From assembly GCA_009781955.1 (NCBI GenBank), contig WQUT01000074.1:1-40273 (forward strand): a stretch of DNA of 40,273 nt. The letters are read 5' to 3'. This DNA comes from Pseudomonadota bacterium (GTDB lineage: Bacteria > Pseudomonadota > Alphaproteobacteria > Rs-D84). The translations under genes and the position numbers were made by a program. The number at the start of each line of letters is the position of its first letter. Within the stretch, counting starts at the first letter, position 1. The notes under the pieces were generated by a model. It saw only the letters and a program-made list of their open reading frames with translations, ran no database searches and was not told the DNA's origin. Below, piece by piece: positions 2,455 through 3,995 of this stretch.

Positions 2455-3894
2455 TTATTTTCTTTGTGCCAAGGCCGCGACGACGTCTTGGTATAATGGC
2501 TCGCCAATCGCGCCGGGTTCTTTGGTGCGGTCCAGCACGGCGATATTTTTCACGGATTTCGGCAAAGCCGCCAAAAACGCCGCCGTCGGGAACGGTCGGT
2601 ACAAATGCACCGCAATCATCCCGGTTCCCCGCGGCAAATGCGCCAGGGTTTCGGTGATGGTTTCCGCCGCGCTGCCCATCACCACAATCACGTTCTTTGC
2701 GGTTTTCGGGCCGTAATAATCAACCAAGCCGTATTTGCGCCCCGTCAGCCGCGCGAATTCATCCATCACGCCGGCAACGATTTCGGGAACCGCGTCGTAT
2801 AACTTATTCGCCGCCTCGCGCCCCTGGAAATACACGTCGGGGTTTTGCGCGGTGCCGCGGATGGTGGGCCGATCCGGCGTCATGCCGCGATTGCGCGCCG
2901 CCAGCATCATGTCGGTCGGGATAAGCGCGCGCAGGACGTCATCCGGTATATGCGTCAGCCGGGATTCTTCATGGCTGGTGCGGAAACCGTCAAAGAAATG
3001 CATAAACGGCACGCGCGAACGCAGCGTCGCGGCGTGCGCAATGGCGGCCATATCGTGCGCCTGTTGCACATTGTGCGCGGACAGCATCGCGAACCCGGTG
3101 CCGCGCGCCGCCATCACATCCGAATGATCGCCAAAGATGGACAGTGCGTGCGTCGCAATGGCGCGGGCCGCGACATGCATGACGAACGGCGTTTGCTCGC
3201 CCGCAATCTTGTACATATTCGGAATCATCAGCAGCAGACCCTGGGACGCCGTAAAGGTCGTCGCCATCGCCCCCATCGCCAACGCGCCGTGCAGCGCGCC
3301 GGCAGCGCCGCCCTCTGACTGCATCTCTATCACGCCGGGGATATTGCCCCAGATATTCTTTTTATGCTGATAGGCCCATTCGTCGGCCAGTTCGCCCATT
3401 GTGCTACTCGGCGTAATCGGGTAAATCGCCGAAAACTCGCTGCACCTATACGCCACATCCGCCGCCGCCCAGCCGCCATCGGCTATTATTCCCCTCCCTC
3501 GGAGGGGTGTCGCGCCGGTATCGCGCGACGGGGAGGGTTTGGTTTTTATAGACTCCATTTCTGCTTTTATATTTTCTAGCACCATATTAATTTTCCTTTT
3601 TACGTCCAAGTCGGCAATACGCAGCGTTTTTATACCAAGGCTGTCCATATATTCGTCTCTGGCTTTATCATATTTTACTTTGGTATCATGCGAATCTCCA
3701 TCAATCTCTATAATCAATTTCAGTTCTTTGCAATAAAAATCCGCTATGTAGTTTCCTATGGTTTTTTGTTTTGTGAAATCGTAGCCAAGCTGTTTTTTCT
3801 TTAACTGATTCCATAGCAGAACTTCGGATAGATTTCCAGATTGACGATTACCTCGCGCATACTTTATAAGATTTCTGTTGTAAAGATTTACCAA
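2455..3894 (-). CDS. nifJ: chimeric ORF: DUF559 endonuclease domain fused in frame to PFOR domains I-II (N-terminal piece of nifJ)
   Basis: The PFOR part (2455-~3486) reads [28 protein letters not shown]...[16 protein letters not shown]. The upstream ~135 aa are DUF559-like. Only a TTG start is available at 3894. Confidence 0.75.
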
Positions 3895-3952
3895 AGCACC
3901 CTCCCCGTCGCGCGATACCGGCGCGACACCCCTCCGAGGGAGGGGAATTAGT
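3487..3952 (-). mobile_element. DUF559-ORF element with perfect 51-bp terminal inverted repeats, inserted near PFOR codon 15
   Basis: TIRs at 3488-3538 and 3898-3948 are exact reverse complements (attcccctccctcggaggggtgtcgcgccggtatcgcgcgacggggagggt). Flanked by a 25-nt direct repeat ccgccgcccagccgccatcggctat (3462-3486, 3953-3977). Interior is AT-rich and encodes [23 protein letters not shown]. Confidence 0.85.
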
Positions 3953-3995
3953 CCGCCGCCCAGCCGCCATCGGCTATCGTTGTTTCTTTTTTCAT
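3948..3995 (-). pseudogene. nifJ: orphaned original PFOR start (15 codons then stop at the element boundary)
   Basis: atgaaaaaagaaacaacgatagccgatggcggctgggcggcggactaa = [15 protein letters not shown]. Its last 8 codons repeat inside the chimeric ORF. Confidence 0.7.

Follow-up and report, generated by a model that had tools for sequence, protein, structure and literature searches.

A DUF559 nuclease gene between inverted hairpin repeats in an alphaproteobacterial PFOR gene, probably a mobile element of a family found across bacterial phyla

Palindromic repeats that accompany a small enzyme gene are known from the REPINs (repetitive extragenic palindromic, or REP, doublets forming hairpins) and RAYTs (REP-associated tyrosine transposases) described by Bertels & Rainey (PMC3116915; bioRxiv 10.1101/2021.07.10.451892). 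Palindromes that enter genes in frame are known from the Rickettsia palindromic elements (RPEs), reviewed in PMC10969869, which names no enzyme for them, and nuclease genes of Vsr-like fold inside host genes are known from the homing endonucleases treated by Taylor et al. (PMC3239194) and Dassa et al. (PMC2677866). Here we describe a locus that shares features with each of these systems. It lies in contig WQUT01000074.1 of the alphaproteobacterial assembly GCA_009781955.1 (lineage Rs-D84), whose whole stretch of 40,273 nucleotides we refer to as the window. In it, the N-terminal gene of a PFOR is fused in frame to a small DUF559 nuclease gene that is enclosed by two inverted repeats, which we call arms. 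We interpret this feature as a recently inserted, nuclease-carrying palindromic mobile element, and we regard it as very probable that it is a mobile or insertional element of the family described below.

The two arms, at 3488-3538 and 3898-3948, constitute a 51-nt inverted repeat that is 100% complementary, with a spacing of 359 nt. These are the only copies of the arm in the window at up to three mismatches, where shuffled sequence leads one to expect 0. Outside the arms the host string CCGCCGCCCAGCCGCCATCGGCTAT occurs twice in direct orientation, at 3462-3486 and 3953-3977, identical at 25 of 25 positions, and it too has just these two occurrences in the 40 kb at up to three mismatches (0 expected from shuffles). 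Filler of 1 nt (3487) and 4 nt (3949-3952) separates the duplication from the arms, the inserted element measures 466 bp, and the empty PFOR site can be reconstructed as ...GAAACAACGATAGCCGATGGCGGCTGGGCGGCGGCGGATGTGGCG....

The DUF559 coding core (3539-3894, minus strand; Pfam PF04480, E 5e-27) starts with TTG at 3894, the first start codon after the preceding minus-strand stop, and has no stop codon of its own. Its frame continues through the downstream arm (3488-3538, with the motif forward on the plus strand), which encodes a linker of 17 aa, and through the PFOR-proximal copy of the duplication (3462-3486, minus strand), which encodes IADGGWAA, into PFOR. The resulting ORF (open reading frame) of 479 aa (2455-3894, minus strand) thus comprises DUF559, the arm-encoded linker and the N-terminal PFOR gene (domains I-II), and in Pfam it matches DUF559 (PF04480, E ~1e-25, aa 9-113), POR_N (aa 147-377) and PFOR_II. 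On the other side of the element a relic of the original PFOR start is preserved (3948-3995, minus strand). From the old ATG at 3995 it encodes a leader peptide of 15 aa and then meets TAA (3950-3948) at the element edge, a codon composed of filler bases and of the arm's first (outer) base, A; the promoter-proximal copy of the duplication (3953-3977, minus strand) lies within this relic leader ORF. The upstream arm (3898-3948, minus strand) presents at its inner, G-rich end the sequence GGAGG, read from the sequence 5 nt ahead of the TTG start, and in a transcript the nuclease start is hidden by pairing between the two arms over more than 51 bp, which speaks neither for nor against a role for RNA. 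GC content is 34-36% in the nuclease ORF core and 58-65% in the flanks. With Pfam, and with Rfam over 3300-4150, the element gave no sign of a transposase, an integrase, an intein or an intron.

A first-pass annotation of this stretch had noticed the perfect inverted repeats, the 25-bp host duplication, the AT-rich ORF with its DUF559/Vsr-like core, the blocked original start and the lack of transposase, integrase and intein motifs, and our analysis bears it out on all of these. Its proposal that the insertion regenerates a complete host frame stands as far as the stop-free DUF559-PFOR fusion is concerned, but the frame restored is only that of the N-terminal gene (~345 aa) of a PFOR split between two genes, an arrangement that is normal for the clade.

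The 51-nt repeat is a copy of a conserved two-hairpin motif, as inverted copies of this motif flank the DUF559 ORF in the loci of relatives. For this comparison 80 genomic loci encoding relatives were sampled, making 160 in all with 80 metagenomic loci; flank counts are given over 82 loci. The arm unit is ~41-51 nt long and is composed of AATT, a first hairpin CCCCTCC-nnn-GGAGGGG, TG, a second, GC-rich hairpin of variable sequence and length, and GGGGTGGT; the window arm at 3488-3538 folds as single-stranded DNA into the same succession of AATT, hairpin 1, hairpin 2 and G-rich tail. An arm lies within ~200 nt of the DUF559 ORF in 76/82 loci, and the canonical order of arm (+), ORF and arm (-) was recovered by strict detection in 46/82. 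Since most of the 160 related loci have the layout of arms plus DUF559, the architecture is not unique to this locus.

Conservation of the arms is evident at the level of pairing. Among 73 aligned arms 95.9% of cells are paired vs 85.1% in shuffles, the covariation score is 0.288 vs 0.106 (0/500 shuffles reach 0.288, and slid controls stay at or below 0.11), and hairpin 2 has compensatory changes in three of its four scored pairs. A covariance model built from the arms (R1) scores the two window arms at 47.9 bits (over 3487-3537) and 49.7 bits (over 3899-3949); at E <= 1e-3 it gives 221 matches from 83 sources, and pairing and covariation in an alignment of 150 such matches agree with those of the 73-arm set. 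The two arms of a single element often differ in hairpin-2 sequence and both still fold. As judged from these sequence comparisons, the element belongs to a large family distributed across many bacterial phyla. We also asked whether the arms represent a known RNA family, intron or ribozyme: they match no family in Rfam 15 below E 0.9, the best matches being to unrelated families.

Some details of the arms hint at the form in which they might be recognised. The loops of hairpin 2 are mostly GAA, GCA or GTA, and GNA triloops give DNA mini-hairpins exceptional stability, a hint that the arms may occur as single-stranded DNA or as cruciforms. A T·G pair is present at the base of hairpin 2 in 71/73 arms, and a 47-nt arm variant (18 arms) has a G·A mismatch (alignment A2, columns 22/45 and 24/43). 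The substrate of Vsr is a T:G mismatch. Together with the loops, these mismatches point to DNA hairpins as a possible substrate of a Vsr-like nuclease that recognises mismatches, which we put forward as a lead only. In six loci (L012, L054, L070, L072, L079 and L045) three to six arm units follow one another in tandem to one side of DUF559, among them a shortened form of 31 nt without hairpin 2; such arrays resemble the clustered REP arrays (bacterial interspersed mosaic elements, BIMEs) of enterobacteria.

Duplications flanking the unit, and filled and empty alleles of the same site, bear on whether it has moved. The 25-nt duplication at the 5' end of PFOR (100% identical) has counterparts of 43 nt (100%) at the 3' end of a host gene in L164, the locus with the closest nuclease found (72% identity), of 50-54 nt (100%) that take in the stop at the 3' end of an alaS-like gene (L013), of 45 nt (98%) at the 3' end of mnmE (L086), of 38 and 36-42 nt (88-92%) at the 3' end of serS (L059 and L049, respectively), and of 36 nt (86%) covering the ATG at the 5' end of a host gene in a member of the Bacteroidota (L065). 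Further duplications, which like those of L086, L059, L049 and L065 are decayed, measure 33, 63 and at least 76 nt (L062, L020 and L132). The length that had seemed unusual in the window is therefore a trait of the family, ranging from 25 to ~76 nt, with 0-13 nt of filler between duplication and arm. Wherever the host gene has been identified, the duplication lies at the very 5' or 3' limit of the gene and restores an intact end on one side of the element. The junctions of L013 and L059 have AAT(C)/TAAT overlaps that do not recur elsewhere, and inspection by eye revealed no convincing complementarity between hairpin 2 and the target.

The closest relatives of the window's PFOR (90%, 86%, 83% and lower identity) are uninterrupted, the proteins P0122-P0131 being empty in this sense. 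DNA of one empty allele, L082, aligns to the relic start region and across both window copies of the duplication, and it holds the homologous 25-mer only once. The polymorphism between empty and filled PFOR sites that the first-pass annotation had named as a check on its reading is thus real, and the 25-nt repeat is absent as a pair from this uninterrupted PFOR. There is also a second filled allele (P0132 in L081, PFOR 80% identical), in which an arm ends at exactly the junction nucleotide of the window. Its nuclease is 61% identical to that of the window, and each of the two nucleases is closer (65-72%) to elements at other sites. At least five PFOR relatives that are closer to the window than this second filled allele are empty. 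The sequence relationships suggest two independent insertions in the window and L081 lineages; the shared nucleotide may be a coincidence, given the narrow tolerated zone upstream of DG(N/G)WAAA. Outside PFOR, the element occupies different sites in the homologous type IIG enzymes of L021 and L042, L021 having in addition an ORF-less pair of arms where L042 has none, and DUF559 genes 78-82% identical to one another reside in HsdR and type ISP genes of different phyla.

As to the host gene itself, the N-terminal PFOR gene (3486 to 2455, minus strand) is followed on the same strand by an MscS channel gene (2441 to 1611) and by the remainder of PFOR, from ~1354 to beyond the window start, with the split at the domain II/III boundary. 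Relatives likewise have a PFOR gene of ~350 aa followed by an unrelated gene, which in L082 is 2-Hacid_dh. The possibility that PFOR is a truncated pseudogene was rejected, as POR_N plus PFOR_II proteins of ~350 aa, 76-90% identical, exist in many relatives and also because the minus strand goes on, past the MscS gene, to encode the remainder of PFOR. A strict-consensus scan for the PFOR promoter gave nothing convincing. In another PFOR relative, P0138, encoded on a contig of 1840 nt, the C-terminal ~120 aa are translated from the antisense strand of the part of PFOR that corresponds to window 366-731; this contig therefore has an inversion or an assembly chimera within PFOR, perhaps caused by inverted arm repeats.

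The nuclease has ~118 aa and matches PF04480 with 94.3 bits (cut-off 20.6). In a PDB profile search with the ORF and 34 relatives, the best-supported match was 3HRL (Neisseria NGO0050, a DUF559 protein; E 7e-26), and 3R3P, the catalytic domain of the homing endonuclease I-Bth0305I, was matched weakly (E 0.019). The AlphaFold2 model (pLDDT 83.6) was aligned by Foldseek to 3hrl (TM 0.70/0.87) and to 3r3p (TM 0.58/0.69, E 9e-5), and more distantly to RAP-domain proteins, PvuRts1I/AbaSI, the R2 endonuclease and Vsr (1vsr). In the alignment of 35 sequences E24, D52, E63, H69 and D76 are invariant and D65 is nearly so (E..D..ExDG..H..D). On the strength of the model, the product is predicted to be a Vsr-like PD-(D/E)xK nuclease with a restriction-endonuclease-like alpha/beta core, in which the catalytic core is preceded by two N-terminal helices and no obvious domain for recognition of a long site is apparent.

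This kinship raises the possibility of a classical free-standing homing endonuclease gene, whose DUF559 product cuts the empty PFOR allele at a specific site, after which homologous repair with a filled allele as template installs the gene; arms and duplication would then be incidental. Besides its relation in fold and sequence to I-Bth0305I, the occupation of one PFOR nucleotide by two nucleases that are not each other's closest relatives, with at least five empty alleles among closer relatives, is what speaks for this explanation. Homing leaves neither inverted repeats nor a target duplication, however, the family occupies dozens of unrelated sites, neither Pfam nor Rfam finds an intron or intein, the protein is the catalytic domain only, and the shared PFOR site is explicable by a narrow stretch in which in-frame insertions are tolerated. 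We therefore consider homing an improbable account of the locus as compared with insertion of a mobile palindromic unit.

Two other roles for the nuclease were examined. A known defence system was ruled out, with PADLOC reporting only weak nuclease-domain matches (DpdF, mREase_II), and PHROGs and NCBIfam returned solely generic nuclease or DUF559 matches for the element. A phage-borne element is unlikely, as 2.9 million viral contigs yielded just 11 weak relatives, none with a long fused frame. Many DUF559 relatives are found on contigs of ~1 kb, which is consistent with arms or multiple copies breaking metagenome assemblies.

Fusion to host proteins is not restricted to PFOR. A continuous stop-to-stop frame of at least 400 aa contains DUF559 in 46/160 loci (26/80 genomic and 20/80 metagenomic), the frame lengths being bimodal, and in these long-frame loci host Pfam domains occur on one or both sides of DUF559. 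In HsdR, DUF559 is situated between the nuclease and motor domains, as confirmed by Pfam in five loci, with the same layout in four more. The other in-frame hosts include type ISP/IIG restriction-modification enzymes, N6_N4 methylases and HsdS, and GcpE/IspG carries N-terminal fusions in Bacteroidales. Restriction-modification genes are heavily colonised: several arm pairs are read through by an hsdS ORF (L019, 959-3677), a type IIG enzyme of 943 aa (L042, 711-3542) holds DUF559 and about six arm copies in frame, and in L021 (25-3870) a DUF559 insertion and a separate ORF-less pair are both in frame. The arms encode peptides of the type NSPPLEGW..GVV in one orientation and TPPxxGN in the other, rich in Pro, Gly, Ser and Thr, which act as linkers in the host proteins; no mention of these peptides was found in the full-text literature.

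Such fusions could also be taken to mean that there is no element at all, DUF559 being an accessory domain, the arms flexible linkers and the PFOR arrangement an assembly chimera. The variety of domain architectures in which DUF559 is fused, and the composition of the arm peptides, would suit this explanation. It does not account for arms that are also intergenic and lie on either strand, for conservation that resides in nucleotide hairpins with compensatory changes and not in peptides, or for the long direct repeats and empty alleles. In addition, the fusion protein is present in the public protein collection (P0121), recorded on two contigs, and the layout recurs in many independent assemblies. 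We regard this explanation as largely refuted already and give it almost no credence.

The abundance of restriction-modification hosts, which are often phase variable, suggests a further alternative, an invertible switch in which recombination at the 51-bp repeats flips DUF559 and thereby toggles PFOR or restriction-modification genes. The perfection of the 51-bp inverted repeats would favour it, as would the enrichment of DUF559 proteins among predicted targets of programmed inversion: Milman et al. 2023 list 'DUF559 domain-containing protein' with an odds ratio of 14.3 and 'Endonuclease domain-containing protein' with 9.6, without comment (PMC9881135). That enrichment may stem, however, from large restriction-modification fusions named after DUF559. 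There is no invertase nearby, no copy in inverted orientation within its host gene was seen among the assembled loci (reads not included), and a switch leaves the duplications, the ORF-less pairs, the hairpin covariation and the conserved nuclease unexplained. A phase switch is in our estimation very improbable.

The history of one insertion can be followed in two 'Candidatus Enterousia'-like genomes (L049 and L059), which have orthologous insertions at the 3' end of serS. Between them the arms are 100% and 95.6% identical, serS 81.6%, the DUF559 ORF 76.5%, the decayed second copy of the duplication 76% and the downstream DNA ~45%. For DUF559 dN is 0.13 and dS 1.7 (dN/dS ~0.08), and for serS dN is 0.08 and dS 1.2. 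These comparisons of aligned sequences indicate that the nuclease and, more strongly, the arms are functionally constrained.

The window contains further copies. A second DUF559 element, of a different subtype, occupies, in frame, 573 nt (191 codons) within the middle part of recO at 27366-27938 (minus strand), as established by tblastn, Pfam, repeats and folds. Its arms, at 27882-27938, 27457-27530 and 27366-27422, are of the ACTCCCCCC/GGGGGGAGT type, and its nuclease is 36% identical to that of the PFOR element. The ORF at 27065-28390 encodes a protein of 441 aa with RecO_N, DUF559 (E 1e-33) and RecO_C matches in Pfam. At least 11 further protein clusters contain RecO::DUF559 fusions, with the insertion at one or other of two positions, and RecO is free of the insert in many close relatives.

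In addition there are four pairs of arms without an ORF, all of which fold into AATT, hairpin 1, hairpin 2 and a G-rich tail with differing stem sequences. The inverted pair at 5360-5547 (5360-5420 on the plus and 5455-5547 on the minus strand; R1 31.5 and 30.0 bits) is in frame in an ASCH-domain ORF (5124-5705), and deletion of its 189 nt from this ORF raises the Pfam ASCH score from 20.5 bits, below the cut-off, to 25.1 bits, above it. The inverted pair at 8375-8576 (8375-8440 plus, 8494-8576 minus; R1 36.3 and 32.8 bits) is intergenic, with its outer end overlapping the TAA stop of an M23 peptidase gene (8575-9762). A head-to-head pair at 1436-1595 (1436-1499 minus, 1533-1595 plus; R1 18.0 and 18.9 bits, fold z-scores -7.0 and -7.7) lies between the MscS gene and the second PFOR gene. 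The fourth, at 1008-1168, is a probable inverted pair with an inverted repeat of 29 nt, both arms of which fold into hairpin 1, hairpin 2 and the G-rich tail; it forms an in-frame insertion of 55 aa in the second (C-terminal) PFOR gene, as seen by tblastn against P0154. The covariance model finds zero arms in the syntenic region of L082. We take the ORF-less pairs for derivatives that accompany nuclease-bearing copies, in the manner of REPINs or of miniature transposable elements with inverted repeats (MITEs). The stretch 4100-6850, from PFOR to a ctpA-like peptidase gene, is AT-rich (33-45% GC) and encodes two GNAT acetyltransferases, the ASCH protein and two ORFs without a Pfam match; in L082 the syntenic stretch has Glyco_hydro_3 and DUF362 genes instead, so that the window stretch is a variable island.

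Dispersed pairs and constrained arms are also what would be expected of a resident system of the REPIN/RAYT kind, in which a vertically inherited 'caretaker' DUF559 maintains and disperses arm pairs, the pairs being the real replicators and neutral or useful to the host, and in which the PFOR copy is a rare relocation of the gene with its obligatory arms. The layout parallels that of RAYT genes, which have inverted REPs on both sides and ORF-less doublets dispersed elsewhere, the serS insertion has been kept over a dS above 1 with a dN/dS of ~0.08 and near-invariant arms, and the four ORF-less pairs of the window have hairpin sequences unlike those of the nuclease-bearing copies. This explanation fits less well with two different DUF559 elements within 40 kb, or with near-identical arms and nucleases in unrelated phyla and different host genes, which imply horizontal spread. 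Perfect duplications moreover mark recent moves of the nuclease-bearing unit itself, and the enzyme is not an HUH/Y1 transposase. A purely resident system is on balance unlikely, although it retains more credit with us than the alternatives weighed above.

Returning to the reading of the PFOR feature as a mobile element, we propose the following mechanism. The DUF559 nuclease would be the mobiliser of the unit, nicking the target strands 25 to ~76 nt apart and/or cutting at extruded arm hairpins, and repair synthesis by the host would copy or join the element and fill the overhangs, giving rise to the duplication. Such a combination of staggered nicks and host repair is the most economical model because a nuclease alone is unable to transfer strands. 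After insertion, the host promoter would drive the relic leader ORF, then DUF559 and then the fused PFOR, with the Shine-Dalgarno sequence of the upstream arm serving as ribosome-binding site of the nuclease, and translation of PFOR could yield a DUF559-linker-PFOR fusion or begin internally, possibly at the in-frame GTG within AAADVAYR. Translatable insertions are likely to result because the arms are open in frame, the nuclease ORF is without a stop and the duplication rebuilds the gene end; selection would purge insertions that break the host gene, and the 25-nt repeats would allow precise loss by recombination.

Several observations weigh against this reading. That DUF559 rather than a host enzyme mobilises the unit is an inference on our part, no activity, excision product or intermediate having been observed, and as strand transfer is beyond a nuclease, insertion at a new site needs a host repair route that the model leaves unspecified. 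Neither a target consensus nor a consistent junction microhomology was found by eye, and most family members outside the gene-end cases are without a flanking duplication, which has either eroded or never formed. The serS and HsdR insertions look old, vertically inherited and under strong purifying selection, and suit an element that is resident or beneficial more readily than one that is purely selfish. The nearest nuclease being just 72% identical, multi-copy activity of this lineage is without support, and survival in frame could reflect selection alone and not a property of the element. Taking these points together, we lean slightly towards the model as a whole, in which DUF559 is the enzyme that mobilises the unit. 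That the target duplication comes from staggered nicks is a tentative suggestion and more open to doubt. It is similarly speculative, and somewhat less than an even prospect, that these loci represent a new class of mobile element, in which a Vsr-like nickase would recognise extruded hairpins and make widely staggered nicks (hence duplications of 25 to ~76 bp), and which would have evolved to go unnoticed by translation, through arms open in frame, the lack of a stop codon and a Shine-Dalgarno sequence of its own, and so colonise even essential genes (recO, gcpE, PFOR and the ends of aminoacyl-tRNA synthetase genes).

No description of DUF559 within a repeat-bounded element was found in the full-text literature, subscription-only literature not being covered. 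If DUF559 does move the repeats, the family would offer a route of transposition or homing based on the restriction-endonuclease fold, distinct from the DDE, HUH, serine, tyrosine and Cas1 routes, and a candidate mobilising enzyme for RPE-type in-frame palindromic repeats, with many natural pairs of filled and empty sites. Should the nuclease be shown to be sufficient for movement, the elements would deserve the name of a new class. DUF559 is a very large family without an assigned function, and a concrete hypothesis is now available for at least one big subfamily. In terms of annotation, 'DUF559 domain-containing' and oversized HsdR, type IIG, RecO, GcpE and PFOR proteins are to be understood as host genes plus an insertion and not as novel architectures, and the arms are likely to give rise to breaks in assemblies and to apparent programmed inversions, including the enrichment in PMC9881135.

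In comparison with known mobile systems, the terminal inverted repeats (here perfect over 51 nt) and the flanking target duplication are shared with insertion sequences and MITEs. Unlike in these, the duplication is long and variable (25 to ~76 nt) instead of having a fixed short length, 0-13 filler bases are present, and there is no DDE, HUH, Cas1, serine or tyrosine enzyme. The duplications of casposons, and that of the CRISPR repeat on spacer integration, are long because the two strands are attacked at widely staggered positions. A long duplication implies such widely staggered attacks here too, but no Cas1 is present. Inteins with homing endonucleases resemble the element as in-frame nuclease-coding insertions in conserved proteins (RecO, HsdR, PFOR); unlike inteins, none of the fusion proteins scanned has Hint or splicing motifs, so that the insert would stay in the mature protein.

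With Vsr-like (EDxHD) homing endonucleases such as I-Bth0305I the element has in common the catalytic fold, a detectable sequence similarity, a selfish-looking nuclease gene inside a host gene, and a PFOR nucleotide occupied in two lineages with empty alleles between them. It differs in having inverted repeats, target duplications and many unrelated sites, in the lack of a group I intron, intein or split-intein context, and in the lack of an additional DNA-binding domain. RPEs and intragenic MITEs share with it the palindromic in-frame insertion that adds a peptide to a gene product (here ASCH, the C-terminal PFOR protein, recO, HsdR, HsdS and type IIG), and differ, as far as can be told from their description, from an element that has autonomous copies with a nuclease, is GC-rich, has a defined two-hairpin unit and occurs in many phyla.

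The resemblance to REPINs and RAYTs extends to a small enzyme gene bracketed by inverted hairpin repeats with conserved single-stranded flanks, to ORF-less inverted doublets nearby, to long persistence and to purifying selection on both enzyme and repeat. The enzyme here is nevertheless a predicted Vsr-like PD-(D/E)xK nuclease and not an IS200/IS605-like Y1 (HUH) transposase; two hairpins make up the repeat, which lacks a GTAG box, and many copies are intragenic whereas REPs are extragenic; and there are in-frame coding insertions, long target duplications and a cross-phylum spread that implies horizontal transfer. What sets the element apart from the known systems is the lack of an HUH transposase, of an intron or intein, of a fixed short duplication and of a recombinase. 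The partnership of a hairpin repeat with an enzyme is of a known kind, and the class of enzyme and the signature of insertion are different. By this comparison the element appears to work most like REPIN/RAYT systems and RPEs, with an enzyme that seems closest to the Vsr-like homing endonucleases.

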